DNA of 32,000 bases, taken from NCBI GenBank assembly GCA_050300635.1, contig JBNKYC010000014.1, forward strand, positions 194,175-226,174. Reading direction: 5' to 3'. The notes under the pieces are model-generated. The model ran no database searches, had not been told where the DNA came from, and saw only the letters and a list, made by a program, of their open reading frames with translations. This document shows positions 2,164 to 16,028 of the stretch, one piece after another. The position numbers and the translations under genes are program-made. How positions within the stretch are numbered: the stretch's first letter is position 1; each line of letters starts with the position of its first letter. This DNA is from Polyangiaceae bacterium (GTDB lineage Bacteria; Myxococcota_A; Polyangia; Polyangiales; Polyangiaceae).

Positions 2164-2197
2164 AACCGGTTGCGGCACTCGCCTCAGCCGGTTTTTT
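2164..2197 (+). terminator. Hairpin plus T-run (terminator-like)
   Basis: AACCGG-18 nt-CCGGTT followed by TTTTT. It abuts the integrase stop codon. Confidence 0.45.
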
Positions 2198-3507: not shown

Positions 3508-3805
3508 CGGGGACTCCTTCAGTTGAAGGCGCACCCGGACGATCCGAGTACAGGTTACCACCGGCACTTCCCGTCAAGAACCGGTCGAGTTCGGCACGCT
3601 CGAATACATGGGTCCCGCGTCCGCCGCGCCGCCCCGCTGCAGCGAGACGCCCCTCCTTCAGGGCCTTCCGGATGGCCCCTGTTGTCCTGAACCCACAATA
3701 CGCAGCAGCCTCCCTCGTCGTGAGGAAAGGCGAGCGAACCGCACCTCCGGCTTCAACCGAACGATGCTGCGCTAGTGGATTTTCGCGGCGTGCCATTGCT
3801 CCCAA
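3200..3805 (-). CDS. xis: Excisionase-family HTH protein (only the N-terminal ~75 aa are recognisable)
   Basis: FLTTREAAAYCGFRTTGAIRKALKEGRL...HVFERAELDRFL resembles excisionase/MerR-type HTH domains. The frame then stays open for about 300 nt across the int start, so the true 3' end and extent are uncertain. Confidence 0.5.
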   Translation of the reverse strand: MGAMARRENPLAQHRSVEAGGAVRSPFLTTREAAAYCGFRTTGAIRKALKEGRLAAAGRRGGRGTHVFERAELDRFLTGSAGGNLYSDRPGAPSTEGVPDGQEEVQETRNQLGEADSPARRIREERRRLRRARPSERFDDREAARDQKGSRRGNGEVSLRVVGGRESSTPVTNRIGPHSEAALRRLRGVLAGEKDPDERHS

Positions 3806-3998
3806 TTATCTGAGAAGCACCGAACCAATTGACAGTCCTTTCCGCACGCTCGCAACGGATACAGCCGGCACTTTAGGGTGCAGTATGAGAACGAGAGCCC
3901 AAAAGAGCTGCCCTCAACACGACCCCCGGAGGGGCTGTTAACTACCGGCTAACCTATCTCATCCACTACTTCTACTAATAGCGGAGTTGCGATTGTTC

Positions 3999-4943: not shown

Positions 4944-5007
4944 AAACGCCTCCCTGAGGCGAAGTGGGGCAGCGTCGCGTCACGAAGAACGATGACGCCG
5001 CCCCTTC

Positions 5008-6123
5008 TTACTTCTGATTGACAGCCCCAGATCCCAGGAACTGCGCTGGCACCAAGGAAGAAAGTCCATCGGCACCGACCACCACTCGGACTTCGGCGAT
5101 GTTCTCGGCGATTTCCTTCATGGCTTCGAGCTCCTTGAGACGGAGCAGGACTGGTTCGGCCGCCATGACCTTGGCCGTGTTGGCGAGAGACCGCGTTGCG
5201 GCCGTCTCTTCACGACGGAGAATCACGTTGGCCTGTGCTTCCTTCTCCGCCTCAATGACGCGGTTCAGAAGCACCTTCATTTCACCGGGGAGGACAACGT
5301 CCTTCACACCGATGTGCTCGACGCGAACACCAATGCCCTCAGCAACAGGCAGAACCTGGGCGATCATTGCACGGGTGAGGGCGTCTCGCCCCTCGAGCAG
5401 TGCATCGAGGGTCACGCCAGCGACATAGTCACGGGCTGCCAGCTGTGCAGCAACGTAGACCGAGTCACGAACACTGGTCACCCGGCGGCTCAGGGCAACA
5501 TCCTCGACTGCGTACTCAACAGAAATGCTGAGGCGCAGCGTGACCTTGTCCCGAGTCATGAGTTCCTGACCGGTAATCGCAAGCTCCGTTCGGCGAACAT
5601 CGACCTTGTCGATGACCACCGGACGGTCGACCGTGTTCCAGAACCGGTAGAGACCTGGTTCGAGAACGCGCTCGAGCTTTCCGCTCACCTTCAGAACCCC
5701 ACGTTCGTGCGGCTGAATCGTTGCTTGAGTGTACTGGCCGGTAGGAACCACCCCTTCGAGCTCTGCGGTCAGAGCAGGAAAGTCAGCGCGCGTGTCGAAC
5801 ACTTCGACGCGAACTGAAGGGTCCATCGTCCAAAATCGCGTCACTCCAGAACGGAGAAACTTGACCGGACGCCCTCCAGCAAACAGCACGGCTCGCTCGT
5901 GGTCGGCAACCTGAACCTCAGCGTACCAATCGGAAGGCAGCACAGCTGCGACCTCTGGGTAGGCATCAAAGATCAGCTCGTCGGCCTTGAAGCGCTGCTC
6001 AGAATAACCGCGTCCCCAAAGGGTGTGGCGACCTGGTCCGAGGGCACGCACGGGCAGACTGTTCTTGAACAGCACGACTCGCTCGTTCAGCTTGACTCGT
6101 AGCGTCTTGTATATTCCAAACAT
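5008..6123 (-). CDS. SPFH/band-7 (slipin-like) domain protein
   Basis: The C-terminal half has a typical SPFH signature (VRVEHIGVKDVVLPGEMKVLLNRVIEAEKEAQANVILRREETAATRSLANTAKVM). Confidence 0.75.
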   Translation of the reverse strand: MFGIYKTLRVKLNERVVLFKNSLPVRALGPGRHTLWGRGYSEQRFKADELIFDAYPEVAAVLPSDWYAEVQVADHERAVLFAGGRPVKFLRSGVTRFWTMDPSVRVEVFDTRADFPALTAELEGVVPTGQYTQATIQPHERGVLKVSGKLERVLEPGLYRFWNTVDRPVVIDKVDVRRTELAITGQELMTRDKVTLRLSISVEYAVEDVALSRRVTSVRDSVYVAAQLAARDYVAGVTLDALLEGRDALTRAMIAQVLPVAEGIGVRVEHIGVKDVVLPGEMKVLLNRVIEAEKEAQANVILRREETAATRSLANTAKVMAAEPVLLRLKELEAMKEIAENIAEVRVVVGADGLSSLVPAQFLGSGAVNQK

Positions 6124-6552
6124 GATTCCGATCTCCTTTCATCGAGATTTCTGAGGCAAAGTTCTTGCTTCGAGAGAATGAGCCTCGCGGTCCATTTCGC
6201 CGCCGAGGCCCCAGGCGACGACCTCCACAAGGAGTCGCGCCGTAAAAGTGGAACTCATTCATCTGACGTGGGGAGCGACACGGGCGAACCCGCTGGGCTC
6301 CGCCGCACCGTGTGGACTCGACGGACTCAGGCCCCGAAAGGCCTTCGCTCGCCTGTCGTTCGGGCCGTGCGGGGAGTCGCCTGCCGGGCTGGTCCGAGAG
6401 CGCCTCATTGAGTGAGGCGTCTGTCAGAAAGCTGGGCAGTCGAGTCCGTCGCGGGCGCGAAAGGAGTCGACGTGAGTGCGGAGCAAGGCGAGCGCTCCCC
6501 TCCCCCGTGGGAAGTTGGCGCGCCTCGCCGACGCTGGATGTTTGAGTTCCTG

Positions 6553-6643
6553 GTTTGGGTAATTTCGCTACCTAAAAGCGTTGCCTTTCGGCACAAGGTT
6601 AAAAGCCTTGTTCTCATGTTCTGACCAACTGAACTACAGCCCC
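6553..6643 (-). pseudogene. Decayed tRNA-Lys(UUU)-like element
   Basis: On the minus strand the 5' half is canonical (GGGGCTG TA GTTC AGTTGGTCA GAAC). The anticodon arm is CAAGG-CTTTTAA-CCTTG. Six extra nt precede the anticodon stem, the T loop is GCGAAAT, and only 4 of 7 acceptor pairs form. Confidence 0.3.
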
Positions 6644-6646
6644 TAG

Positions 6647-6728
6647 TGGAACTGACCGGAATCGAACCGGTGACCGTGAGAGTCTGGTGGACGATACGTT
6701 CGCCTAACGGTGACCACACCATCGCTCC
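6647..6728 (-). other. tRNA-like element with a good T arm but no canonical anticodon arm
   Basis: The T arm is ACCGG-TTCGATT-CCGGT. The acceptor pairs at 5 of 7 positions (GGAGCGA/CAGTTCC). I could not fold the interior as a cloverleaf. Confidence 0.25.
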
Positions 6729-6799
6729 TCAGGACACGAACCACGGACACACAAGGGAGACTGCAAAGAGACCCAAGCGCGCGCCGTCGCACTGACTAA

Positions 6800-6878
6800 A
6801 GAGACGAGAGGGAGTCGAACCCTCTACCCGGAAAGCCCGCCCCAGTCCGATTTGCGGTCGGACCAAGGCGGGCTGGAC
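6800..6878 (-). other. tRNA-like element directly downstream of the HNH gene
   Basis: The T arm is GAGGG-TTCGACT-CCCTC. A long hairpin AGCCCGCC..GTCCGA-CCGCAAA-TCGGAC..GGCGGGCT carries a GCA-containing 7-nt loop. No partner for the acceptor 5' strand was found. Confidence 0.3.
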
Positions 6879-7397
6879 TCAGATCATTCCGTAGGCTTCC
6901 AAGTACGGAAGCCATTCTTCCGGGACGCGGCCGCGGCGCGCGTCGACCATCCCAATCGGGAGGGCCTTGGGCCGCACTGGCTCCATCAGCGGGAACATCC
7001 CCGCTTCGTCACAGCTCAGATTGGCCTTCTTGTTGTTGCAACGCTGACACGCAGCAACGATGTTCTCGAACGTTCGAGGCCCGCCGTGACTCCGAGGAAC
7101 CACATGGTCCATCGTGAGATCACTTCCGGGCAGATGAGCTCCGCAGTACTGGCAGCGGAACTTATCGCGGATCTTCACATTGTGGTCCGAGTACTTGATC
7201 CCCTTCTTGAAACGGGGAGTCATGTGCCGCAGGCGAATGACGGCAGGCACGTTCCAGGTCACGGACGGGGAAGAGACCGTCTCTGAATACTCAGCAATGA
7301 CATCGACCGTTTCCTCGTAGGTCATCTTGATTGCGGCCTGCCAAGGAACCACCTTTATCGGGAAGTACCAGGCCGTGAGGAGCAGTGAATTTCGCAT
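6879..7397 (-). CDS. HNH endonuclease (small McrA/COG1403-like)
   Basis: The motif reads CQYCG...LTMDHVVPRSHGGPRTFENIVAACQRCNNKKAN. The start is set at MRNSLLL, with AAGGAGG upstream. The track's longer N-terminus runs into a non-coding repeat. Confidence 0.8.
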   Translation of the reverse strand: MRNSLLLTAWYFPIKVVPWQAAIKMTYEETVDVIAEYSETVSSPSVTWNVPAVIRLRHMTPRFKKGIKYSDHNVKIRDKFRCQYCGAHLPGSDLTMDHVVPRSHGGPRTFENIVAACQRCNNKKANLSCDEAGMFPLMEPVRPKALPIGMVDARRGRVPEEWLPYLEAYGMI

Positions 7398-7432
7398 CAC
7401 GGCCTCCTTTCCTTTGTTGGTGCGATTGACTG

Positions 7433-7560
7433 TTTCTTTCAGGAGGGCAGAGGCCCTCCTCGTCGCGGGAAGTGAATCCCGGCTCCTCACCTCCACCCAA
7501 GCGACGTGCGCTCCGGCGCCTCCCACTTGGTCGGCGGCGGTACTCGCGCTCTCGTCCCGG
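7433..7560 (-). repeat. Copy 1 of a ~125-bp repeated non-coding element (leader-like, ends ~36 nt before the HNH start)
   Basis: About 88% identical to 8692-8818. Minus-strand hairpins GGAGGGC-CTCT-GCCCTCC and CGGGA-TTCACT-TCCCG are present. Confidence 0.7.
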
Positions 7561-7739
7561 CGCTACCGAGCCTCGTCCTGCCGGTCGCGGAAGACGGGCC
7601 CCGACGCTCCCCGGGCGGAAGGGCGCAGGAAACCACCGGCGACTAAGTAGGAGCCGCTGGATTTCCAGCGGAAGGTGGGGAGGAGAAGCGGAGATTCACT
7701 CTCCGCGACGGAGGGGACGCCGTCCCCTCAAAAAACGAG

Positions 7740-7813
7740 TAGAGCACATGGGAGTTGAACCCATCGCAGGTCCCTTATCAGGAGACCCAGATCAAACCGG
7801 ATCGTCGTGCTCA
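7740..7813 (-). tRNA. tRNA-Ile(GAU)
   Basis: Anticodon arm GTCTC-CTGATAA-GGGAC, T arm ATGGG-TTCAACT-CCCAT. The acceptor forms 6 bp with a U1-U72 mismatch. No CCA is encoded. Confidence 0.65.
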
Positions 7814-7814
7814 G

Positions 7815-7962
7815 TGCTGTCGGCGGGAGTCGTGGCCGAGCCCCGCTAGGGGCGAGCCCCACCGAGATAGTGCGATCGAAGAACGCACTATCGAAGGTCA
7901 CCCGCAATGCCGTGCGGCACGCCGTCTCAGGGCGCTGTGTATGCCTGTTCCACCACGACAGC
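7815..7962 (-). tRNA. tRNA-Leu(GAG)-like, abnormally long (148 nt)
   Basis: Perfect 7-bp acceptor GCTGTCG/CGACAGC with A73. Anticodon arm GCGCC-CTGAGAC-GGCGT and a type II variable arm CCGCA-CGGCAT-TGCGG. About 75 extra nt of hairpins precede the 3' strand, including the motif CTCGGCCACGACTCC. Confidence 0.45.
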
Positions 7963-7963
7963 G

Positions 7964-8081
7964 TGGTACACGCCCTCGGATTCGTGGCCGAGGACGTAGT
8001 CCGAGTCCCGCCGAGCGAAGCGACGGCCACCAGACTTCCCGGGCTTAAACCGGGCACCTCTACCGATTGGGTTAGGCGTGC
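7964..8081 (-). tRNA. tRNA-Leu(UAA), long (118 nt), CCA encoded
   Basis: Acceptor GCACGCC/GGCGTGT followed by ACCA. Anticodon arm CCCGG-TTTAAGC-CCGGG. The variable region is 45 nt and the T arm is CTCGG-CCACGAAT-CCGAG with an 8-nt loop. Confidence 0.55.
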
Positions 8082-8085
8082 CGAG

Positions 8086-8167
8086 CGGAAGGTAGAGAAA
8101 TCGAACCACGCACCTCTCGGTGCCCCTGGTTTTCAAAACCAGTTCGCCTCCATAGGCGGTACCTTCC
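8086..8167 (-). tRNA. tRNA-Ser(UGA)
   Basis: Perfect acceptor GGAAGGT/ACCTTCC with G73. Anticodon arm CTGGT-TTTGAAA-ACCAG and variable arm GCACC-GAGA-GGTGC. The T stem has two mismatches. Confidence 0.6.
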
Positions 8168-8169
8168 GG

Positions 8170-8241
8170 ATGAGGTGACAGGAATTGAACCCGCATCGCC
8201 GGGTTCAAAGCCCAGGGTCTTGACCGTTAGACGACACCTCA
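8170..8241 (-). tRNA. tRNA-Gln(UUG)
   Basis: Perfect acceptor TGAGGTG/CACCTCA, D arm GTCT-AACGGTCA-AGAC, anticodon arm CTGGG-CTTTGAA-CCCGG, T arm GCGGG-TTCAATT-CCTGT. Confidence 0.8.
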
Positions 8242-8394
8242 GAAGTTTTCTTCGCTGCGCAGGCAGCGACGCGCTCAGCACCGCCGACGAGCAAGCCCCA
8301 TTGCGAGTCGCCGGAGCGCCCGCGGAGTTGGGGGGAGGCTCACGCAGCGCTCTGCGCAGAGTGAGGGGGGCTGCATCAGCCCCCGATGAAACAG

Positions 8395-8463
8395 TCGCGA
8401 CGGAAGTATTCGAAACTTCATGCGAGCCCGTATGAAAGGCTGCTCCGACCCTCGGTCGCCGCG
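8395..8463 (-). tRNA. tRNA-Met(CAU), short (69 nt) with a reduced D arm
   Basis: Acceptor CGCGGCG/CGTCGCG, anticodon arm AGCCT-TTCATAC-GGGCT, T arm GAAGT-TTCGAAT-ACTTC. The D region is only CCGA-GGG-TCGG plus a 3-nt connector. A competing 10-bp hairpin lies at 8447-8477. Confidence 0.5.
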
Positions 8464-8540
8464 GTTGCGAGGGTCGGTAATGCTCCGATCTGATCTCCGG
8501 GCCATGAACCCGACGAGCCACTTTTGCTCCATCCTCGCGG

Positions 8541-8613
8541 CGTTTCGGCCAGGACTCGAACCTGAATTTCAGCCTTCGCAGGGCTGCGTCCTGTCCAGTT
8601 GGACGACCAGAAC
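8541..8613 (-). tRNA. tRNA-Arg(GCG)
   Basis: D arm GTCC-AACTGGACA-GGAC, anticodon arm CAGCC-CTGCGAA-GGCTG, T arm TCAGG-TTCGAGT-CCTGG. The acceptor has one mismatch. Confidence 0.75.
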
Positions 8614-8618
8614 AATCG

Positions 8619-8691
8619 CGTTCTCGGCAGGAGTCGAACCTGCACCCATCCGCTTAGAAGGCGGCTGCCCGTCCAATCGAGCCTCGAGAAC
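8619..8691 (-). tRNA. tRNA-Arg(UCU)
   Basis: Perfect acceptor GTTCTCG/CGAGAAC, anticodon loop CTTCTAA, T arm GCAGG-TTCGACT-CCTGC. Confidence 0.8.
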
Positions 8692-8818
8692 TTGTCTTTT
8701 CAGGAGGGCAGAGGCCCTCCTCGTCGTCGGGAGTGAATCCCGACTCCTCACCTCCACCCCTGCGACGTGCGCTCCGGCACCTCCCACTTGGTCGGTGGCG
8801 GTGCTGGCGCTCTCATCA
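8692..8818 (-). repeat. Copy 2 of the ~125-bp repeated element (its end abuts the 5' end of tRNA-Arg(UCU))
   Basis: It aligns with 7433-7560. The internal hairpin is TCGGGA-TTCAC-TCCCGA, with changes at the stem ends that extend the pairing relative to copy 1. Confidence 0.7.
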
Positions 8819-8932
8819 TCGCTTCGCGGTGCTTCGTCCTGGCGGGCGCCGGGCATAAGGGCAGGCCGCAGAACCCGTGAGGGTTCGAGGACCTCGACAA
8901 AAGTTACGGCACGCAGCACACCCGTGGAGGAG

Positions 8933-8983
8933 AGCCGAAGAGGTTTCGCCCTCACTTGTGATGGGGCGGAAACTCGTAGGCCT
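8933..8983 (-). repeat. Copy A of a ~50-nt conserved motif
   Basis: GCCGAAGAGGTTTCGCCCTCACTTGTGATGGGGCGGAAACTCGTAGGCC, compared with 10740-10789. Confidence 0.6.
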
Positions 8984-9058
8984 CCCCCACGGGCAAGCAG
9001 AGTGAAGCGCCATCGTGCACAGTTCGTCGATAAAGGCCGACGGACACGCTGCGCTCGG

Positions 9059-9126
9059 AGATCCGAGTGAGAGTCAAACTCACCCTCGCTGCTTTGCAAC
9101 CAGCGTCGTCCTCGGGACATCGGATC
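9059..9126 (-). tRNA. Short (68 nt) tRNA with a GCA-containing anticodon loop (Cys-like; identity ambiguous)
   Basis: Perfect acceptor GATCCGA/TCGGATC, D region GTCC-CGA-GGAC, anticodon stem CGCTG/CAGCG with the 9-nt loop GTTGCAAAG, a 3-nt variable region, and T arm GTGAG-TTTGACT-CTCAC. Confidence 0.45.
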
Positions 9127-9131
9127 ATTCG

Positions 9132-9203
9132 TACAAGTGGAGGGAATCGAACCCCCGTATCCTGGGTGGAAGCCAGGCATCTTGGCCGCTGGATCACACT
9201 TGC
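9132..9203 (-). tRNA. tRNA-Gly(UCC)
   Basis: Acceptor GCAAGTG/CACTTGT, anticodon arm CCTGG-CTTCCAC-CCAGG, T arm GGGGG-TTCGATT-CCCTC. Confidence 0.75.
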
Positions 9204-9204
9204 T

Positions 9205-9280
9205 TGGAGCCTCTATCGGGATTCAAACCCGAGTCTCTGCCTTACCGGGGCAGCGTTCTGCTCGACTGAACTATGGAGGC
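9205..9280 (-). tRNA. tRNA-Thr(GGU), CCA encoded, C at position 33
   Basis: D arm GTTC-AGTCGAGCA-GAAC, anticodon arm CTGCC-CCGGTAA-GGCAG, T arm TCGGG-TTTGAAT-CCCGA, 3' end TAGAGGC-T-CCA. Confidence 0.7.
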
Positions 9281-9284
9281 ACGG

Positions 9285-9351
9285 AGCCTTATCCCGGAAT
9301 CGAACCGAGTCAGATTGAGTACGAAACAATCCACTTTCCAAAAGCTAAGAC
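9285..9351 (-). tRNA. tRNA-Thr(CGU), short (67 nt) with a reduced D arm
   Basis: Anticodon arm ATTGT-TTCGTAC-TCAAT with a U-U closing pair, T arm CTCGG-TTCGATT-CCGGG, D region CTTT-TGG-AAAG plus TGG. The acceptor pairs at 6 of 7 positions. Confidence 0.5.
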
Positions 9352-9360
9352 AGCACTTTG

Positions 9361-9433
9361 TACACGCTCCCAGATTCGAACTGGGACCTCTCGGGTCTGA
9401 GCCGAGCGCCTCTGCCAGTTGGGCTAAGCGTGC
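9361..9433 (-). tRNA. tRNA with Leu anticodon CAG but a type I (4-nt variable loop) body
   Basis: It folds as GCACGCT TA GCCC AACTGGCAG AGGC G CTCGG-CTCAGAC-CCGAG AGGT CCCAG-TTCGAAT-CTGGG AGCGTGT A. The 5' half is a close paralogue of the Leu(UAA) gene. Confidence 0.65.
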
Positions 9434-9435
9434 AT

Positions 9436-9507
9436 TGGTGGAGCCGTCGGGAATCCAACCCGCAAGCTCTCTGTGCAAGAGAGAGCCGTAGCGCACTACA
9501 CAACCCC
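9436..9507 (-). tRNA. tRNA-Cys(GCA), compact, CCA encoded
   Basis: Anticodon arm CTCTC-TTGCACA-GAGAG. The acceptor GGGGTTG/CGGCTCC has three G-U pairs. D region GTAG-TGCG-CTAC, 3-nt variable region, T loop TTGGATT. Confidence 0.55.
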
Positions 9508-9512
9508 ATCAG

Positions 9513-9578
9513 CAGACCCACAAGGAATCGAACCCTGTCGACAACGGATTTGGAGTCCGTCCGGCGGCCGTCCGATCC
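9513..9578 (-). tRNA. tRNA-Trp(CCA)-like, very short (66 nt)
   Basis: Anticodon arm ACGGA-CTCCAAA-TCCGT and T arm CAGGG-TTCGATT-CCTTG. Only 11 nt lie between the acceptor and the anticodon stem. The acceptor is weak, with three G-U pairs and one mismatch. Confidence 0.4.
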
Positions 9579-9583
9579 CAATC

Positions 9584-9621
9584 GTGCAATGCGAAACGGA
9601 CGCGAGTCCGTGAAGCTGCAC
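9584..9621. repeat. Left copy of a ~38-nt inverted repeat pair (partner at 11308-11346)
   Basis: The reverse complement GTGCAGCTTCACGGACTCGCGTCCGTTTCGCATTGCAC aligns with GTGCAGCTTCACGGACTAGCGTCCGTTCCGCTTTGTCAC. The first 17 nt are identical. Confidence 0.75.
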
Positions 9622-9636
9622 ATGCGATACTACTGA

Positions 9637-9704
9637 CTAAATAAAGGCGCGTCGCGTGTCCTGCGGTAGCAGGCCCCTTTCAATCGCACCGATCCGCGAC
9701 GCGC
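9637..9704 (-). terminator. Terminator-like structure just after tRNA-His
   Basis: On the minus strand a 10-bp stem GCGCGTCGCG/CGCGACGCGC encloses a CCTGC-TACC-GCAGG hairpin and is followed by CTTTATTT. The 38-nt loop is atypical for a terminator. Confidence 0.35.
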
Positions 9705-9705
9705 G

Positions 9706-9773
9706 GGGTGTTGCTGAGGATCGAACTCAATAACCCGGGTCACAACCGAGTTTGCCCCCAGGGCGACAACACC
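9706..9773 (-). tRNA. tRNA-His(GUG), short (68 nt) with a reduced D arm
   Basis: Perfect acceptor GGTGTTG/CAACACC with C73. Anticodon arm CTCGG-TTGTGAC-CCGGG, T arm TTGAG-TTCGATC-CTCAG, D region GCCC-TGG-GGGC plus AAA, 3-nt variable region. No G-1 is encoded. Confidence 0.55.
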
Positions 9774-9774
9774 A

Positions 9775-9861
9775 TGGCGGAAGCTGGACGAGTCGAACGT
9801 CATTCCTTTCGGAACGCACCGATTAGCAGTCGGGCCAAGCGCCACCGCCTGTTCAGCTTCC
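9775..9861 (-). tRNA. tRNA-Ser(GCU), CCA encoded
   Basis: Perfect acceptor GGAAGCT/AGCTTCC followed by GCCA. Anticodon loop CTGCTAA, variable arm TTCC-GAAA-GGAA, T loop TTCGACT. Confidence 0.7.
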
Positions 9862-9865
9862 GTAG

Positions 9866-9937
9866 TCGGAGACCTGGGGGTCGAACCCAGCAGCACACGG
9901 TCCCAAGCCGCGCGGCACACCCCGTGCCTTGACTCCG
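9866..9937 (-). tRNA. tRNA-Pro(UGG)
   Basis: C1-G72 and A73. Anticodon arm CGCGG-CTTGGGA-CCGTG, T arm CTGGG-TTCGACC-CCCAG, compact D arm GGCAC-GGGGT-GTGCC. Confidence 0.7.
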
Positions 9938-9942
9938 AATAG

Positions 9943-10015
9943 TGGATCCCCTCAGTTTCGAACTGAGCTCTCCTGTTCTTCAGACAGGCGCTTTCACCAG
10001 ATTAGCTTGAGATCC
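9943..10015 (-). tRNA. tRNA-Phe(GAA)
   Basis: It folds as GGATCTC AA GCTA ATCTGGTGA AAGC G CCTGT-CTGAAGA-ACAGG AGAG CTCAG-TTCGAAA-CTGAG GGGATCC A. Confidence 0.8.
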
Positions 10016-10019
10016 GTAG

Positions 10020-10092
10020 TACTCGGGGCCGGGAACGATCCAGCAACCGTCTCCTTGTAAGGGAGCTGCGCTACCAATTGCGCCACCCGAGC
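10020..10092 (-). tRNA. tRNA-Val(UAC) with an unusual T loop
   Basis: D arm GCGC-AATTGGTA-GCGC, anticodon loop CTTACAA, T arm GCTGG-ATCGTTC-CCGGC (A54/U58 in place of U54/A58), acceptor GCTCGGG/CCCGAGT. Confidence 0.7.
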
Positions 10093-10093
10093 T

Positions 10094-10169
10094 TGGCGCT
10101 TCGTACGGGAATCGAACCCGTCTCCAAGTGATCGACAATCACCCTGCCTCCCCAGCGGCATCACGAAGC
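10094..10169 (-). tRNA. tRNA-Asp(GUC), CCA encoded
   Basis: Perfect acceptor GCTTCGT/ACGAAGC followed by GCCA. D arm TGCC-GCTGGGGA-GGCA, anticodon loop TTGTCGA, T arm ACGGG-TTCGATT-CCCGT. Confidence 0.85.
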
Positions 10170-10173
10170 ATTC

Positions 10174-10311
10174 ACGCGCCGTAGGGTCACAGACCCGAAG
10201 GCCCGTAAGAAACATGGCGCGTAGCAATTCTGCCCACCAGACCGGAGTGTTCCGTCCTCACCCTTCCGGGGGGCGGAACACGCAGGTCAATGTGTGGCAA
10301 GCAGAATGCAG
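10174..10311 (-). other. Two stem-closed structured elements between tRNA-Asp and tRNA-Glu (not foldable as tRNAs)
   Basis: At 10174-10222 the ends ACGCGCC/GGCGCGT pair around GGCC-TTCG-GGTC and GGGTC-TGT-GACCC hairpins. At 10223-10311 the ends GCATTCTGC/GCAGAATTGC pair around an 8-bp GTGTTCCG/CGGAACAC hairpin. Confidence 0.3.
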
Positions 10312-10383
10312 CACCCCCTGTCGGTATCGATCCGACTCTTTCAGGTTGAAAACCTGACGACCTAGCCAGTAGTCGAAGGGGGC
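10312..10383 (-). tRNA. tRNA-Glu(UUC) with an unusual T loop
   Basis: It folds as GCCCCCT TC GACT ACTGGCTA GGTC G TCAGG-TTTTCAA-CCTGA AAGA GTCGG-ATCGATA-CCGAC AGGGGGT G. Confidence 0.75.
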
Positions 10384-10392
10384 ATAGTTGAC

Positions 10393-10461
10393 TCGCGTGG
10401 CTACGCGACCCGCCTTCGGCGGGCTCGTCGACCTTCATGGACTCCGTCCACCAAGGTGGAC
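10393..10461. other. Cluster of three GC-rich hairpins, including a tandem GTGGACGGAGTCCAC motif
   Basis: The hairpins are TCGCGT-GGCT-ACGCGA, CCCGCC-TTC-GGCGGG and GTCCAC-CAAG-GTGGAC. The 13-mer GGACTCCGTCCAC occurs twice (10439-10451 and 10458-10470). Confidence 0.5.
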
Positions 10462-10475
10462 TCCGTCCACTACGG

Positions 10476-10556
10476 TTCCGGGGGCAGGAATCGTGGCCGA
10501 GCGAAGCGAGCCCCGCCGAGCGGAGCGAAGGCCACCCGCACACGTCGGGCCCCAGG
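10476..10556 (-). other. tRNA-like element sharing the CTCGGCCACGATTCC motif of the long Leu genes
   Basis: Ends CCTGGGG/CCCCGGA pair at 6 of 7 positions, with a C1-A72 mismatch. It has a CCCG-ACGTGTG-CGGG hairpin and a GCGGG/CCTGC stem around an internal GTGGCC...GGCCAC hairpin. No D arm is present. Confidence 0.25.
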
Positions 10557-10562
10557 AGCTTG

Positions 10563-10634
10563 CTTCGGGGATAGGACTCGAACCTATATGAACTCGCTTA
10601 ACAGGCGAGTGCCTTACCAATCGGCCACCCCGAA
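10563..10634 (-). tRNA. tRNA-Asn(GUU)
   Basis: Perfect acceptor TTCGGGG/CCCCGAA with G73. Anticodon arm CTCGC-CTGTTAA-GCGAG, T arm ATAGG-TTCGAGT-CCTAT. Confidence 0.85.
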
Positions 10635-10739
10635 TCATCGCCACACCCTCCTCGGCTAATTGACTTCCAAGCGGCCGCAGGACCTTCGGGTCCGAGGACC
10701 AAAAGAAACAGTTGGCGGGAAGCACACTCAATCAAGAAG

Positions 10740-10789
10740 GCCGAAGAGTACCGCCCTCACTCTGTGATGGGGCGAGACTCGTAGGCCCG
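10740..10789 (-). repeat. Copy B of the ~50-nt conserved motif
   Basis: GCCGAAGAGTACCGCCCTCACTCTGTGATGGGGCGAGACTCGTAGGCC, compared with 8933-8983. Confidence 0.6.
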
Positions 10790-10891
10790 GATGTGGCGAG
10801 CAAAAAATTGCTGAGTATTCAGTTGTCACGGATCAGGAGGAGCGAATGCTCCTGTGACTTGCGAAACGAAGCGTTTCACCTCGTTTCGCAG

Positions 10892-10963
10892 TGGATCTGG
10901 AGGGACTCGAACCCTCGTCCAACCGGGTAAGAACCGGCGACTCTGCCGCTGAGTTACAGATCC
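10892..10963 (-). tRNA. tRNA-Lys(CUU)
   Basis: Perfect acceptor GGATCTG/CAGATCC, D arm ACTC-AGCGGCA-GAGT, anticodon arm GCCGG-TTCTTAC-CCGGT, T arm GAGGG-TTCGAGT-CCCTC. Confidence 0.85.
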
Positions 10964-10967
10964 AAGG

Positions 10968-11005
10968 CCCGGATGAGGTGCCTCCTTGTGTTCACCTCAT
11001 CCGGG
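10968..11005. other. 13-bp perfect hairpin between the two Lys tRNA genes
   Basis: CCCGGATGAGGTG-12 nt-CACCTCATCCGGG. Confidence 0.7.
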
Positions 11006-11036
11006 GAAACGACACTGGATGTGCCGTGGAATTGAG

Positions 11037-11109
11037 TGGGACCAGGGGGCTTCGAACCCCCACCCCCTCGATTAAAAGTCGAGTGCGCTACCAGTTACGC
11101 CACAGTCCC
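11037..11109 (-). tRNA. tRNA-Lys(UUU)
   Basis: It folds as GGGACTG TG GCGT AACTGGTA GCGC A CTCGA-CTTTTAA-TCGAG GGGGT GGGGG-TTCGAAG-CCCCC TGGTCCC A. Confidence 0.85.
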
Positions 11110-11196
11110 AAGTCCAAGCTTGTGACTGCGTTTCTTCATTCGATACATAGTTCTCTCCTGTTCGCGCTCGAGATCGAGCGCGCAATTCACCCTTCG

Positions 11197-11279
11197 TGGA
11201 GCCCCCGAGATTCGAACTCGGCAAGCGCGCTGCGCAGCGGGGTTACAATCCGCTTGAGGTCCCGAGCCTCATGAGCTCC
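11197..11279 (-). tRNA. tRNA-Tyr(GUA), type II
   Basis: Acceptor GGAGCTC/GGGCTCC with A73. D arm GAGG-CTCGGGA-CCTC, anticodon loop TTGTAAC, variable arm GCGC-AGC-GCGC, T arm CCGAG-TTCGAAT-CTCGG. Confidence 0.75.
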
Positions 11280-11307
11280 ATCCTGACTTCAGTCGATGTT
11301 CTGAAGC

Positions 11308-11346
11308 GTGCAGCTTCACGGACTAGCGTCCGTTCCGCTTTGTCAC
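11308..11346. repeat. Right copy of the ~38-nt inverted repeat pair (partner at 9584-9621)
   Basis: See 9584-9621. It contains the hairpin ACGGAC-TAGC-GTCCGT. Confidence 0.75.
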
Positions 11347-11657
11347 TCCAAATCGCTGAGGGCCGCCTTGGTTTCCCAGGGCGGCCCTTCTGCGACACGA
11401 ATGTCTCAGTGGAATGCCAGCCTAGGTATTCTCTCCCCAGGGAGAGCCCAAATCCGTAGCTAGGATGAAGCCCGTGGGCTGTTCACACGCGGACAGCGCC
11501 AATGCACCAACGAGATCCTTCTCGTTCAGATACGCTGCACCTAAATCAAGCGCAGTAGGCCGAAGCTCTGCTTGCGTACTTCTATGGTTCGTCGGTTTCG
11601 TCATCGAGCTTGTGCTCCTAGTTCGGACACCCTCATTGGCATCACGGCGGGGCACAA

Positions 11658-11673
11658 TGCGAGGGGCGTGCCA
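11658..11673 (-). promoter_or_regulatory. Candidate sigma54 (-24/-12) promoter pointing into the tRNA array
   Basis: The minus strand reads TTGGCACGCCCCTCGCATT, i.e. TGGCAC-N5-TCGCA. It lies between the rtcR stop (11755) and tRNA-Tyr (11279). Confidence 0.5.
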
Positions 11674-11727
11674 ACTCTTCTGAACTGAGCTTTTGCCGAC
11701 AAAACTGAAGTTGCATCGCAGTTCGAC

Positions 11728-11743
11728 ATATCTGTACAGATAT
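11728..11743. promoter_or_regulatory. 16-bp perfect palindrome, candidate enhancer-binding (UAS) site
   Basis: ATATCT-GTAC-AGATAT, centred about 64 bp upstream of the -24 element at 11668-11673. It has the same half-site and spacer length as 13340-13355. Confidence 0.45.
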
Positions 11744-11754
11744 TTTTCTATCTC

Positions 11755-13338
11755 TTAGGATATGTCATCCCAGGACAGAGAGTATCGGTTCAAGTACTTC
11801 CGCACCCGGTCTGCGTCATTGACCGACGAACGCCTCTTTCGGGATTCGGCGAATAGAGTGCGGCCTGCCTCCGAAAGAGAGTTTGAGTCCACGCACACCC
11901 GCAGAACCTCGGCCAGCTGAACCCGGTCAAACAGATCAAGGTCGGCGATGACATCGGCTCCGAGGAACCGCGAGAGGATATCGTCCCCCTCCTCACCGCC
12001 TGGCCGCTCCCACGACTCTTTCAGGCGTTCGATCTCTTCCTTGACACCAGCCGCTGTGATCCTGCCCCCCTCTGCGAGGGTCGCCATGCGCTCAAAAGCG
12101 GCACTGTAGTCGCGAAAGTTGCCAGACCAGCTAGTGGACGGCGCCTTGGCAAAATCGAGAAATAGCTTACGGGCCTCACGGTTCATGGTGACGCGTTCGC
12201 CGTGCGTTTCTGCCCATCGCTCAGTTTCGTATTCGAGGTTGGGCTCCATATCCTCGGGCCTATCCCTCAGAGCGGGGAGATGGAACGCCCACAGATTGAT
12301 GCGAGCGAGAAGGTCATCGCGAAAAGTCCCCTGAGCCACAGAGCCGCGCAGATCGCGGTTGGTCCCGCTGATCAGCTGGAAGTCGCTCTCCGCCTCTCGA
12401 TCGGCGCCAACAGGAAGGAACCTCTTCTCCTCGATGGCGCGAAGGAGCATGGCCTGCTCCTCAAGTCCGAGCTCGCCAATTTCATCGAGAAAGAGGATGC
12501 CGCCGTTGGCCTCACGGAGGAGACCCTCACGTGGGCCTGACGCGCCAGTGAACGCGCCCTTCTTATGCCCAAAGAGGGCACTCATGGCGCCGTCGCCTCG
12601 GATAGTGGCACAGTTCACCTCGACAAAGGGCCCGGAAACCTGGCCGCGCAGCTTCTTTAGCTCATAGACCCGTCGCGCCAAATGGCTCTTGCCAGCGCCG
12701 GTCGGACCCATCAAGAGCAGGGGGGACTTCGATGCAATGGCGACCTGCTCGATGCGGTCGATTTGCTTGTTGAACGCCTTGTTCTTTGTAGCGATTCCTG
12801 ACTTGAGGAAGTCCCGGCTCTCCCGCTGCTCGAGTTTGAACCGAGACGCGAGCTTGTCGTACTTGGACAGGTCAAGATCGATGACGCTATAGGAGCCAAC
12901 ATTCCCCTTTTGCCGGGATGGACTCGTCTGAAGCAGCTGACCTGGGATGTGGCGAGACTCCGTCAGCAAGAACTGGCAAATCTGAGCTACGTGCGTCCCG
13001 GTCGTGATGTGGACAAGGTACCTTTCCTTGCTCTGCTTGAACGAGTACTTGGAGGCAAAGTCGTGGAGCGCTGCATAGACCTCCTCAAAGTCCCAGGGGT
13101 CGGTGGTCTCAAGGTGATGCGGACACACCTGGGTTTCGGGCGAGACGGAACGAATATCCTTTGTGATCTGCTCAGCCAGCTTCTCGAACTTCGACTGGTA
13201 CAGAAGCTCGAACCGGTCGACGACCAAGTCCTCGTGCCGACACACGTCAACGGTCGGACGCCACTGAAGCCAACGGTCGCCCCGCTTCTTCATGGCATCC
13301 AGAGTCACGCCCAACATCCCGATGACGACAGTTTTCAT
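11755..13338 (-). CDS. rtcR: Sigma54-dependent transcriptional activator RtcR (CARF-like N-domain, AAA+ domain, C-terminal DNA-binding region)
   Basis: Walker A LLMGPTGAGKSHLA and the GAFTGA motif (HKKGAFTGA). The N-terminal ~185 aa resemble the RtcR sensor domain. The gene is divergent from rtcBA. Confidence 0.85.
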   Translation of the reverse strand: MKTVVIGMLGVTLDAMKKRGDRWLQWRPTVDVCRHEDLVVDRFELLYQSKFEKLAEQITKDIRSVSPETQVCPHHLETTDPWDFEEVYAALHDFASKYSFKQSKERYLVHITTGTHVAQICQFLLTESRHIPGQLLQTSPSRQKGNVGSYSVIDLDLSKYDKLASRFKLEQRESRDFLKSGIATKNKAFNKQIDRIEQVAIASKSPLLLMGPTGAGKSHLARRVYELKKLRGQVSGPFVEVNCATIRGDGAMSALFGHKKGAFTGASGPREGLLREANGGILFLDEIGELGLEEQAMLLRAIEEKRFLPVGADREAESDFQLISGTNRDLRGSVAQGTFRDDLLARINLWAFHLPALRDRPEDMEPNLEYETERWAETHGERVTMNREARKLFLDFAKAPSTSWSGNFRDYSAAFERMATLAEGGRITAAGVKEEIERLKESWERPGGEEGDDILSRFLGADVIADLDLFDRVQLAEVLRVCVDSNSLSEAGRTLFAESRKRRSSVNDADRVRKYLNRYSLSWDDIS

Positions 13339-13339
13339 G

Positions 13340-13355
13340 TTATCCGTGAGGATAT
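13340..13355. promoter_or_regulatory. Dyad related to 11728-11743, candidate UAS
   Basis: TTATCC-GTGA-GGATAT, centred about 105 bp upstream of the rtcB -24 element. It directly abuts the rtcR start codon. Confidence 0.45.
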
Positions 13356-13450
13356 GCTCTTATCTCCTTGAATCCAGGCACGAAGACCCCAATCAGAGTT
13401 CTCTGCATTATTTCAGCGATTTGCGCGCGAGTCGGTCGAGGCGCTGAACT

Positions 13451-13466
13451 TGGCACAACGTCTGCA
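13451..13466 (+). promoter_or_regulatory. Sigma54 (-24/-12) promoter of the rtcBA operon
   Basis: TGGCAC-AACGT-CTGCA in the rtcR-rtcB intergenic region, oriented toward rtcB. Confidence 0.7.
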
Positions 13467-13609
13467 AAGTCTCGGTCACGCTTCTGAAGCTCAACGCGGC
13501 AGAGCACCGGAAAAACACAGGACAAGCCGGGCCTCGAAGGAGGCATGTGGAACCCAGGCGACTGGGGAGCGGCAACGGTTAACAGATTGCACCGAACAGG
13601 GTCCGAGAG

Positions 13610-13685
13610 GGTTCTGAAGGGAAGCAGGTTCCCGAAAGGCCGCCTCATCCACGTGGAGTGGGTTCGATCCCCACCAGAAGCACCA
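13610..13685 (+). ncRNA. tRNA-like element in the rtcB 5' leader (ends in ACCA; no anticodon stem)
   Basis: It folds as GGTTCTG AA GGGA-AGCAGGT-TCCC ... GTGGG-TTCGATC-CCCAC CAGAAGC A CCA. The 24 nt in the anticodon position (GAAAGGCCGCCTCATCCACGTGGA) form no 5-bp stem. A perfect alternative 5' strand GCTTCTG lies at 13483-13489 near the predicted TSS. Confidence 0.5.
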
Positions 13686-13723
13686 GCCATCAAGTTGATT
13701 GTCACTTAGACTGGAGAGAAGAA

Positions 13724-14947
13724 ATGAGTACCTACGAACTGCGCGAACCTCACGGCGGCGTTCCGATCAAGACCTGGACCAAGGGCGTGCCCGTGGAACC
13801 AGAGGCTGTTGATCAGCTCACCAACATCGCGCGCCTGCCCATCGTCCACAAGTGGGTCGCGGCCATGCCGGACGTTCACCTGGGGATCGGTGCGACCGTA
13901 GGCAGCGTTATCCCCACCGTGGGAGCGGTGATTCCTGCAGCAGTCGGCGTGGATATCGGCTGCGGAATGATGGCCGTGGAAACCACGCTGAAGGCCAGCG
14001 ATCTTCCAGATAACCTCGGCCCCATGCGAAGCACCATCGAACGAGCAGTCCCCCATGGGCGCGGACGGTCCGGGCGTCGCGGGGACAAAGGTTCTTGGAG
14101 CGACGTTCCGAACCGCGTCGGAAAGGTCTGGAAAGGGCTAGAATCTGGCTTCAAAGCCATCGTCGACAAGCATCCAGGCGTCGAGAAGAGCAACAATGTC
14201 GTTCATCTCGGGACGCTCGGAACCGGAAACCACTTCATCGAGGTTTGCCTCGATGAAAAGGACAACGTCTGGTTCATGCTGCACAGTGGCTCACGCGGAG
14301 TAGGAAACCGCATCGGTTCGCACTTCATCGCCCTGGCGAAGAAGGACATGCAGCGTCATCAACAGCATCTGCCCGACGCCAACCTTTCCTACTTTGAGGA
14401 AGGGAGCGAACACTTCCACGACTACGTGGAAGCCGTCGAGTGGGCGCAGAGCTTCGCGCGTCATAACCGAGAACTCATGATGCACGCTGTACTCGATTCG
14501 GTTCGCCGGTTGCCCAAGTTTCCGTCTTTCCAAACGGCAAAGAGCGCCGTCAACTGCCACCACAACTACGTTTCACGCGAGTTCCACTACGGAAAGAACG
14601 TGTTCGTGACCCGCAAGGGAGCTGTGCATGCAGGTGAAGGCGTCCTGGGCATCATCCCCGGAAGCATGGGAGCTCGCTCCTACATTGTCCGGGGAAAGGG
14701 AAACCCAGAAAGCTTCTGTAGCTGTAGTCACGGAGCGGGGCGCGTGATGTCCCGTACCAAGGCAAAGAAGAAGTTCTCCTTGGAGGACCATCGCCGAGCG
14801 ACTGAAGGCGTCGAATGCCGCAAGGACAAGGACGTCATCGACGAAACGCCTGGTGCCTACAAGGACATCGACAAGGTGATGGAGGCCCAGAGTGATCTGG
14901 TCGAAATCCTCCACACGCTCAAGCAGGTGGTCTGCGTGAAGGGGTGA
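13724..14947 (+). CDS. rtcB: RNA-splicing ligase RtcB (3'-phosphate/5'-hydroxyl RNA ligase)
   Basis: Typical RtcB sequence blocks (IARLPIVHKWVAAMPDVHLGIGATVGSV, GTLGTGNHFIEV, HSGSRGVGN, NCHHNY, SCSHGAGR). The start is set at MSTYELREP with GGAGAG upstream. The track's 13658 start overlaps the tRNA-like element. Confidence 0.92.
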   Translation: MSTYELREPHGGVPIKTWTKGVPVEPEAVDQLTNIARLPIVHKWVAAMPDVHLGIGATVGSVIPTVGAVIPAAVGVDIGCGMMAVETTLKASDLPDNLGPMRSTIERAVPHGRGRSGRRGDKGSWSDVPNRVGKVWKGLESGFKAIVDKHPGVEKSNNVVHLGTLGTGNHFIEVCLDEKDNVWFMLHSGSRGVGNRIGSHFIALAKKDMQRHQQHLPDANLSYFEEGSEHFHDYVEAVEWAQSFARHNRELMMHAVLDSVRRLPKFPSFQTAKSAVNCHHNYVSREFHYGKNVFVTRKGAVHAGEGVLGIIPGSMGARSYIVRGKGNPESFCSCSHGAGRVMSRTKAKKKFSLEDHRRATEGVECRKDKDVIDETPGAYKDIDKVMEAQSDLVEILHTLKQVVCVKG

Positions 14948-14999: not shown

Positions 15000-16028
15000 A
15001 TGCTTACTATCAACGGATCTATGGGAGAGGGCGGTGGCCAGGTCCTGCGTTCATCGCTTGCCCTCTCGGCTGTGACCGGGACTCCGTTTCGCATCGAAGG
15101 GATCCGTGCGAAGCGCAGTCGCCCCGGTCTGCTTCGGCAGCATCTAACCGCTGTTCGGGCTATGGCTGAGGTTTGTTCGGCGCGCGTCTCTGGGGCCGAA
15201 TTGGGCTCGCGAGAGCTTACCTTCGAACCTGGTGTCACCAAGCACGGACACTACGAGTTCGCCGTCGGTACTGCCGGTAGCGCCACGCTCGTCTTTCAGA
15301 CGGTGCTCCCAGCACTGCTCACTACCGCTGGCGAATCTCGACTTGTCTTCGAAGGGGGAACGCACAACGCGTGGGCTCCACCTGTCGACTTCATCCAACA
15401 CACCTTCCTTCCGCTGCTTCATCGCATGGGAGCGACTGTTCAGATCGAATTGGAGCGCCACGGGTTCTACCCGGCTGGTGGCGGGCGCTTCGCAGTACGC
15501 ATCGCCGGCGGCTCACCTCTTTCGGGACTCGAACTTTCAGAGCGCGGGGATATCGAAAGCGTGCTGCTTGACGCATTGGTCAGTCAGATCCCCGAGCATG
15601 TCGCGGAGCGCGAGGTGCGCACGTTGGCTCGTCAACTCGCCGATCTACCCGTCGGCGTCGAGACCCATGCCGTGAACAGCCCAGGCCCAGGAAATGTCGC
15701 GATGGTGAGAGTGCGCTCAGCGCACCTGACTGAGGTGTTCACCTCCTTCGGAGAACGCGGGGAGAAGGCGGAGACGATTGCTCACCGCCTCGTTGGAGAT
15801 GTGCGCAAGTACGTCGCCTCAGAAGTCCCGGTCGGAGAACACCTCGCGGATCAGCTTCTGATCCCACTGGCTCTCGCGGGAGAGGGTGCCTTTGTGACGG
15901 GCGAGCCAAGTCTGCACACAACGACTAACCTCGAGGTGATTGGGATGTTCTTGCCCGGACGGCTCACGCTTGAACGCGGCTCCGCCGGCGCGCGCATTAT
16001 CGCGAAAGGGGGGCGTCATGAGGGCTGA
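15000..16028 (+). CDS. rtcA: RNA 3'-terminal phosphate cyclase RtcA
   Basis: GEGGGQVLRSSLALSAVTGTPFRIEGIRAKRSRPGLLRQHL is typical of RtcA. The gene lies immediately downstream of rtcB. Confidence 0.9.
   Translation: MLTINGSMGEGGGQVLRSSLALSAVTGTPFRIEGIRAKRSRPGLLRQHLTAVRAMAEVCSARVSGAELGSRELTFEPGVTKHGHYEFAVGTAGSATLVFQTVLPALLTTAGESRLVFEGGTHNAWAPPVDFIQHTFLPLLHRMGATVQIELERHGFYPAGGGRFAVRIAGGSPLSGLELSERGDIESVLLDALVSQIPEHVAEREVRTLARQLADLPVGVETHAVNSPGPGNVAMVRVRSAHLTEVFTSFGERGEKAETIAHRLVGDVRKYVASEVPVGEHLADQLLIPLALAGEGAFVTGEPSLHTTTNLEVIGMFLPGRLTLERGSAGARIIAKGGRHEG

Follow-up and report, generated by a model that had tools for sequence, protein, structure and literature searches.

We analyzed a 32,000-nucleotide stretch of DNA from a Polyangiaceae bacterium (assembly GCA_050300635.1, contig JBNKYC010000014.1, positions 194,175 to 226,174 of the forward strand), hereafter called the window and numbered from its first letter, in which the gene for the regulator RtcR lies between two predicted sigma54 promoters. 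One promoter faces the rtcBA operon and the other faces a conserved leader and an array of 20 tRNA genes. Two modules of phased GATA/TATC half-sites, one at each end of rtcR, are probably RtcR enhancers that serve both promoters, judging from sequence comparison. We also lean toward the view that the tRNA array itself is under RtcR/sigma54 control. Since a sigma54 promoter requires an enhancer-binding ATPase and RtcR is encoded between the modules, RtcR is the candidate binder; the box tracks rtcR (with rtcB) alone across phyla. The initial annotation of this DNA had proposed RtcR as the single regulator of both promoters, and the comparative evidence agrees with that prediction in that the motif is conserved at rtcR and is paired with sigma54 promoters elsewhere.

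Phased Half-Site Modules at Both Ends of rtcR

The rtcR gene occupies 11755..13338 on the minus strand (Pfam RtcR, PF06956, 1.7e-81; Sigma54_activat, 1.1e-48). The initial annotation had reported that the same 16-bp dyad lies upstream of both sigma54 promoters. Re-reading of the sequence confirmed its coordinates: ATATCTGTACAGATAT at 11728-11743 is a perfect palindrome, as claimed, and TTATCCGTGAGGATAT at 13340-13355 is complementary at five of its six arm positions. When the pattern WTATCYGTNNRGATAT was searched with one mismatch permitted, the two dyads were the only matches in 32 kb, and 100 dinucleotide-preserving shuffles gave none. With G+C contents of 0.25 and 0.41 against 0.594 for the window, both dyads are the AT-rich islands that they had been said to be.

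The dyad is present at both places, but it is not the whole site. An extra TATC half-site begins exactly 5 nt past each dyad (11749 and 13361). The predicted distal module (11729..11762) thus has cores TATC at 11729, GATA at 11739, TATC at 11749, and GATA at 11759, and the predicted proximal module (13341..13364) has TATC at 13341, GATA at 13351, and TATC at 13361. In both, the half-sites alternate in orientation with an exact 10-bp start-to-start phase, and therefore all of them lie on one face of the helix. The distal module holds a second full dyad, TATCTCTTAGGATA (11749-11762), which overlaps the rtcR stop codon (11755-11757). In the proximal module, the dyad at 13340-13355 adjoins the rtcR start codon (CAT at 13336-13338 on the plus strand), as had been noted, with a gap of one base. 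Read in the rtcR direction, the two modules share one layout, AGATAA-gagc-ATATCC-tcac-GGATAA-c-ATG for the proximal and TATCC-taag-AGATA-gaaaaa-TATCT-gtac-AGATA for the distal copy, and the half-site consensus is WTATCY/RGATAW. Of the shared motif put forward earlier, the half-site (A/T)TATC(T/C) stands and is conserved across phyla; the GTNN spacer does not, as it varies in orthologues. Three to four alternating half-sites would suit a dimeric or oligomeric helix-turn-helix protein, and we refine the earlier proposal accordingly: in place of one 16-bp dyad, the predicted functional unit comprises three to four half-sites phased at 10 bp. Two other identities for the dyads were tried and rejected. 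An intrinsic terminator of rtcR at the palindrome is not indicated, as the palindrome is AT-rich and no terminator-like site was found in 11150-13750, and no sigma70 promoter was found at the dyads.

Conservation of the Box ahead of rtcR

The comparison drew on 80 rtcR loci each from genomes and metagenomes, plus a dozen others retrieved by exact protein look-up (individual loci are numbered with the prefix L). Counts refer to 145 non-redundant rtcR loci from Myxococcota, Alpha- and Gammaproteobacteria, and Planctomycetota. A search of orthologous rtcR loci had been suggested in the initial annotation, and its outcome supports the motif. At least two phased alternating half-sites occur in the last 60 bp before rtcR at 89 of the 145 loci and at least three at 56, compared with 0.8% and 0.01%, respectively, in shuffles and with 0/142 in a control window from -320 to -260. 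The strict core TATCY-N4-RGATA is found at 78/145 loci, mostly ending 2-8 nt ahead of the start codon, and in most genomes the proximal box spans the ribosome-binding region of rtcR.

Close relatives (73-94% RtcR identity, Polyangiaceae/Polyangiales) have kept three half-sites ending 1-3 nt before the ATG in intergenic DNA that has otherwise diverged. The sequence upstream of rtcR reads GATAggagtgTATCctttggGATAat-ATG in L001 and GATAaaagtaTATCctgacgGATAag-ATG in L002, and L005, L007, and others resemble these two. A matching arrangement was seen in Sphingomonas, Novosphingobium, Pseudoalteromonas, Alteromonas, Vibrio, Shewanella, Leclercia, and one Phycisphaerales genome. In E. coli K-12, the corresponding sequence is GATAatgaaaTATCgtcttttataagGATAtctaag-ATG, with GATA-N6-TATC-N12-GATA at the equivalent place; the candidate binding stretch in E. 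coli is GATAATGAAATATCGTCTTTTATAAGGATATC. Conservation of the box with the activator gene, while the flanking intergenic DNA diverges, is the behavior expected of an enhancer.

Because circularity was to be avoided, an unbiased 6-mer comparison was made on distant loci (124 with less than 70% RtcR identity, against 496 controls). The most enriched 6-mers were GGATAA/TTATCC (37 loci and no controls) and ATATCC/GGATAT (42 loci and one control). A 30-column weight matrix trained on these distant loci alone returned the two modules as its top four matches in the window, at 27.4, 20.0, 16.7, and 10.9 bits; the next match scored 5.0 (background -46.7, standard deviation 11.2). The distal module accounts for the scores of 27.4 and 20.0 bits, and the best match is the dyad at 11749-11762, which was absent from the initial annotation and is the better conserved of the two distal dyads. 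L001 and L003 have the distal module too, likewise at the stop codon of rtcR.

Sigma54 Promoters and Their Spacing from the Modules

The promoter facing the leader and tRNA array, TGGCACGCCCCTCGCA, lies at 11658..11673 on the minus strand (predicted transcription start site ~11647), and that facing rtcBA, TGGCACAACGTCTGCA, at 13451..13466 on the plus strand (predicted start ~13477). Neither has a mismatch, and they are the only zero-mismatch matches to TGGCAC-N5-YYGCW in the window. Measured from dyad centre to the GG of the -24 element, the distances are 64 and 105 bp, the values given before. The module centres lie 74 bp (distal) and 100 bp (proximal) from the GG, or at about -98 and -124 relative to the predicted transcription starts. 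Both fall inside the 70-200 bp range for sigma54 enhancers, in keeping with the earlier remark that the spacing is typical of enhancer-binding-protein sites.

The geometry is preserved in relatives. The array-facing promoter keeps its GG and GC, with a variable spacer, in L001, L002, L003, L162, L164, L006, and L084, and the distance from distal box centre to GG is 75-79 bp across the window, L001, L002, L003, L006, and L060. The rtcB-facing promoter is kept in L001, L002, L003, L162, and L164, 99-102 bp from the box centre. Orthologous promoters retain TGGCA(C/T) and (C/T)GCA, and their spacers differ. Between the distal box and the -24 element there is a T-tract/A-tract inverted repeat, TTTTGCCGACAAAA (11691..11704), and TTTT...AAAA elements stand at the matching place in L001, L002, L162, and L164; the repeat may serve to bend the DNA or to bind a second protein.

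Boxes Away from rtcR

Clusters of at least three half-sites were sought in 1.8 Mb of fetched DNA. Fourteen non-redundant clusters were found away from the rtcR-proximal position, of which eight have an outward-facing sigma54 promoter 55-113 bp off; the sigma54 promoter pattern turns up in the scanned DNA at a density of 0.09 per kb. The remaining six all fall within a single conserved gene of Gammaproteobacteria (384 aa), situated 0.9-1.5 kb upstream of rtcR, and were set aside as coding conservation, not regulation. A sigma54-like match inside L008 was also discarded, as it sits in apparent coding sequence.

Box-promoter pairs precede tRNAs, the conserved leader RNA, Band_7, Ro60, or PcfJ genes at about a dozen loci. 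In the window, L001, and L003, the box is at the rtcR stop codon and is followed by the leader and then by 20, 21, and 7 tRNAs, respectively. In L002, a pair of divergent sigma54 promoters flanks the box, which lies 1.4 kb downstream of rtcR; one promoter faces a PcfJ-like gene and the other the leader and a tRNA-Lys gene. In L162, a dyad likewise sits between divergent promoters, with the leader on one side and a PcfJ gene on the other. A distal box precedes tRNA-Phe and PcfJ in L006 and Band_7 in L170, and in L169 it precedes tRNA-Asp, tRNA-His, a Ro60/TROVE gene, and tRNA-Gln. The distal element of L084 is a two-half-site dyad ahead of tRNA-Asn, -Asp, -Gly, and -Glu; L084, L162, L169, and L170 each add a box-plus-promoter pair. 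L060, L114, and L160 also have a distal box with a sigma54 promoter.

L002, whose RtcR is 91% identical, serves as a natural control: the stop codon of its rtcR is free of a box, and the protein ends in DFA*. In a comparison of the window, L001, L003, L002, L162, and L164, the protein ends in DIS*, DISQ*, or DLS* where a half-site overlaps the stop codon and in DFA* or DFG* otherwise. The last codons of rtcR appear to be shaped by the binding site.

Genes for tRNA and tRNA-like molecules recur behind RtcR-linked sigma54 promoters: three ordinary tRNA genes in Phycisphaerales L015 and L096, nine in Sedimentisphaerales L016, and, in many Alteromonadales, two to three tRNA-like genes in tandem whose anticodons are aberrant. 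We also observed that in L038, L052, L126, L127, L132, L134, L135, and L139, the tandem tRNA-like genes share a strand with the divergent operon and are located ~330-480 bp upstream of rtcR, and that the gammaproteobacterial examples have odd anticodons (tta 'stop', 4-nt loops).

The RtcR Protein

RtcR of the window has an N-terminal CARF-type RtcR domain, an AAA+ domain with Walker A GPTGAGKS and the GAFTGA motif, and a C-terminal helical region. A C-terminal segment, LSEAGRxLF...NDADR(L/V)RKYL, is nearly invariant across the RtcR family, which fits a conserved DNA specificity, and NDADR(L/V)RKYL is its putative recognition helix. When domain and motif were compared for covariation, this helix proved nearly invariant at loci both with and without the box. 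The AlphaFold model of the C-terminal domain is all-helical at moderate confidence (mean predicted local distance difference test score 80), and a Foldseek search of the model against the PDB returned nothing below E = 4.8.

The Leader and tRNA Array

The first region transcribed from the array-facing promoter would be a conserved leader of ~370 nt (11280..11647, minus strand). It is conserved in L001, L002, L003, L162, and L164, whether tRNAs follow or not, and consists of a conserved 5' block, an open reading frame (ORF) of 60 aa, and invariant 3' hairpins. Deletions within the ORF (11422-11604, minus strand) in L162 and L164 preserve its reading frame, and a database of 5.8 billion proteins contains only eight close homologues of it. 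One invariant hairpin, GGGCCGCC...GGCGGCCC, lies near 11346-11376. The covariation term from RNAalifold is ~0, and in a proposed long-range helix between the 5' and 3' parts of the leader, 85% of cells pair with no compensatory changes. Searches of Rfam families with this leader and with that ahead of rtcB gave weak, sub-threshold matches only. The array leader could represent a small protein, a noncoding RNA, or an attenuator.

The array follows at 7739..11279 on the minus strand, in the orientation of the promoter, with 20 genes in 3.54 kb (5.6 genes per kb); it thus has the at least 20 tRNA genes and at least two per kb that define a tRNA array unit (PMC4758250). Twelve of the 20 reach the Rfam tRNA threshold. 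Arrays differ among relatives, with 21 genes in the same order in L001 and seven in L003. In a scan with E. coli-type consensus sequences, no consensus sigma70 promoter was found in 3900-11700, and terminator-like sites were at chance level. Read-through from the sigma54 promoter into the array is therefore the simplest reading and a plausible one from the sequence. Control of the array would depend on it, since the promoter first transcribes the leader and relatives have the leader without an array.

Past the array, the minus strand carries an HNH endonuclease gene (6879-7526) and an SPFH/Band_7 gene (5008-6123), and the interval 5008-7526 also contains a 105-aa ORF. In L162 and L164, a Band_7 gene stands behind the leader, whereas in the window the order is array, HNH, and then Band_7; the array would thus seem to have been inserted into an older, presumably RtcR-dependent, unit. 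Band_7 was observed directly behind the box-promoter-leader unit in L162, L164, and L170. Between the HNH gene and the next ORF, there is a T-arm-like hairpin, AGAGGGTTCGACTCCCTCT (6807-6825, minus strand), that may be a tRNA remnant. Beyond the end of Band_7, a phage-integrase-family ORF (2197-3567) and a Y2-transposase-like ORF (526-1398) are found, both on the minus strand, and the region of the array may belong to a mobile island.

The rtcB Side

Between the other sigma54 promoter and rtcB, there is a tRNA-like leader RNA of ~205 nt (13480..13685, plus strand). An acceptor-like stem of 7 bp (GCUUCUG/CAGAAGC), a T-arm GUGGGUUCGAUCCCCAC, and an encoded 3' A-CCA can be recognized in it; its minimum free energy z-score is -2.2, and neither ARAGORN nor Rfam called it. 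We take it to resemble the YrlA-type bacterial Y RNAs. The genes rtcB (13724-14947; start from the gene call and the sequence) and rtcA (15000-16028) follow on the plus strand, and the rtcBA operon of the window has no Ro60 gene. Near rtcA, two adjacent RlaP-family nucleotidyltransferase genes (PF10127; 17763-19741, minus strand) were noted, with no sigma54 match upstream.

Alternative Explanations

Several observations weigh against the reading of the modules as RtcR enhancers that control both promoters and the array. Some 40% of rtcR loci have fewer than two phased half-sites despite a similar recognition helix, and rtcR genes without the box are exemplified by Achromobacter, Sandaracinaceae, and some Planctomycetes. 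In L004, L005, L008, L168, and L171, RlaP is driven by a boxless sigma54 promoter directly after rtcR (these promoters begin 2-6 bp past its stop codon), and the box is thus not needed at every promoter of the neighborhood. The C-terminal region of RtcR matched neither the Pfam helix-turn-helix models, at up to E = 1, nor PDB sequences, and the proposed DNA-binding fold would rest on literature and on the helical model, itself of moderate confidence. A different protein, be it nucleoid-associated, bending, or a repressor, might then bind the GATA/TATC arrays, with RtcR acting from elsewhere or from solution. The box is AT-rich, like many sites of architectural proteins, the link between RtcR and the motif is drawn from sequence context, and some sigma54 promoters adjacent to rtcR are boxless. 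However, the motif follows rtcR across phyla that share just this gene, and usually rtcB, and the 1.8 Mb of flanking DNA contains essentially none of it except beside sigma54 promoters. The obvious candidates also fail: the best match to the Fur box (GATAATGATAATCATTATC) in either module is 9/19, no better than in shuffles, and nothing in the boxes or in the box-promoter interval matches the IHF site (WATCAR-N4-TTR). We give this explanation little credence. An RNA-level role, in which the proximal dyad forms a hairpin in the rtcR 5' untranslated region that masks the ribosome-binding site and the distal copy is unrelated, draws on the position of the inverted repeat 2-8 nt before the start codon and on its inclusion of GGA. 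It is very hard to reconcile with the conservation of the specific bases TATC/GATA in place of pairing, with a third half-site in 10-bp phase that has no part in a hairpin, with a stem of only five AU-rich pairs, and with the recurrence of the module upstream of promoters, outside any 5' untranslated region; we regard it as highly improbable. Chance resemblance between two AT-rich palindromes, for which only the shortness of the motif speaks, is refuted by the conservation and the shuffle controls, and its likelihood is negligible.

The reach of the distal module is a separate matter. The distal box could control the conserved leader only, the array being a later insertion with promoters of its own or insulated by a hairpin. 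The box-promoter-leader unit has no tRNA behind it in L162 and L164, and a single, distant one in L002. An invariant, strong GC-rich hairpin between leader and array, followed by TTT in most relatives, could end some transcripts. Promoters inside the array would also be compatible with the scan, because myxobacterial sigma70 promoters fit the E. coli consensus poorly and an E. coli-type search may miss them. Against these points, the hairpin of the window is followed by CTCAGCG instead of a T-run, the stretch 11700-3900 showed neither a terminator nor a sigma70-like promoter, and box-sigma54 units stand directly before tRNA or tRNA-like genes at the independent loci L006, L084, L169, L015/L096, and L038. 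Restriction of control to the leader is, in our estimate, unlikely.

Proposed Mechanism

With the modules read as RtcR enhancers at both promoters, the following sequence of events can be proposed. RtcR, responsive to damaged tRNA as published for Salmonella, would become active and assemble on the phased half-sites, whose one-face layout would suit the several helix-turn-helix domains of an oligomer. It would then loop to sigma54 holoenzyme ~75-100 bp away, perhaps aided by bending at the T-tract/A-tract (11691-11704), and open both promoters. The proximal module would drive the tRNA-like leader RNA followed by rtcB and rtcA. The distal module would drive the array leader and, by read-through, the 20-gene array, with the HNH and Band_7 genes further along probably included. 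Since the proximal module covers the rtcR ribosome-binding region, RtcR probably limits its own synthesis, by analogy with other activators of this class. In PspF and NtrC, a site overlapping the start of the activator's own gene gives autoregulation. The outcome would be that tRNA damage induces repair (RtcB/RtcA) and replacement (spare tRNAs) together. A more elaborate 'repair or replace' response, in which a leader attenuator gates the array, is improbable on present evidence. It would have the leader ORF and hairpins act as a translation-sensing attenuator that reads tRNA availability, and the spare tRNAs may also act as decoys for anticodon nucleases. The leader ORF is rich in the A/U-ending codons AAA, AAC, CAT, AGA, AGT, and CAA, which are presumably rare in a GC-rich genome.

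RtcR is the best-understood bacterial sensor of tRNA damage, and the phased GATA/TATC box is a cross-phylum candidate for its enhancer from which RtcR regulons could be predicted by sequence. In Polyangiaceae-like genomes, the regulon predicted from the box is wider than rtcBA and includes the tRNA array, the leader RNA or small ORF, and the Band_7, PcfJ, and Ro60 genes. The purpose of long tRNA arrays is unsettled, and here an array would be linked to a specific signal, namely tRNA halves that end in a cyclic phosphate.

Comparison with Known Systems

RtcR has been described as having a helix-turn-helix domain and binding an upstream activating sequence (UAS) ahead of rtcBA, and a multicopy plasmid carrying PrtcBA titrates it (PMC7790460, PMC5175333, PMC9650030). 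The enhancer sequence of RtcR is marked 'NK' in the table of a 2016 review (PMC4987338), and an RtcR profile for Pectobacterium is computed and available as an image only (PMC4888284). In the literature searched, we found no link of RtcR to tRNA arrays and no experimentally defined RtcR enhancer sequence, and the link to the array proposed here appears to be new. The regulator and the rtcBA promoter of the window correspond to the known RtcR system; the second module and the array extend its regulon in a way that we did not find described in that literature.

The window shares with the E. coli and Salmonella systems (rtcBA; rsr-yrlBA-rtcBA) the order of CARF-type, AAA+ GAFTGA, and C-terminal DNA-binding regions in RtcR, the divergence of rtcR from a sigma54 promoter of rtcB and rtcA, and a tRNA-like RNA at the head of the operon. 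GATA/TATC half-sites occupy the same position before rtcR in E. coli. Unlike E. coli and Salmonella, the window has a second enhancer-promoter unit beyond rtcR, with a leader and 20 tRNA genes, and it has no Ro60. The UASs of NtrC, NifA (TGT-N10-ACA), PspF, and FhlA resemble the modules in having several dyad sites ~80-150 bp upstream of the -24/-12 element, and as with PspF and NtrC a site overlaps the start of the activator gene. The modules differ from these UASs in their half-site, in having three to four alternating half-sites at a 10-bp phase where the others have two separated 17-bp dyads, and in that one half-site is embedded in the stop and last codons of the activator gene.

The nearest analogue is the TrcR regulon of Anabaena, in which a long tRNA array and rtcB are under one factor and a repeated motif is found in both promoters. 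TrcR represses the trn array, rtcB, the HNH gene all8564, and the slipin gene alr0740, and its target sites are 9-nt direct repeats that cover the -10 box of sigma70 promoters (PMC8421152, PMC10272220). HNH and SPFH/Band_7 (slipin) genes thus occur in both the Anabaena regulon and the window. In contrast to TrcR, RtcR is an activator with a known RNA-damage-sensing domain and would act on sigma54 promoters from a distance, and we regard the resemblance as analogy, not common descent. The array itself is like the tRNA array units, or L-arrays (Tran et al., 2016; Santamaria-Gomez et al., 2021), which also adjoin HNH and rtcB and are found near integrase and transposase genes. What sets it apart from the L-arrays is its Polyangiaceae-like myxobacterium host and a sigma54 promoter upstream with a predicted RtcR-type enhancer.

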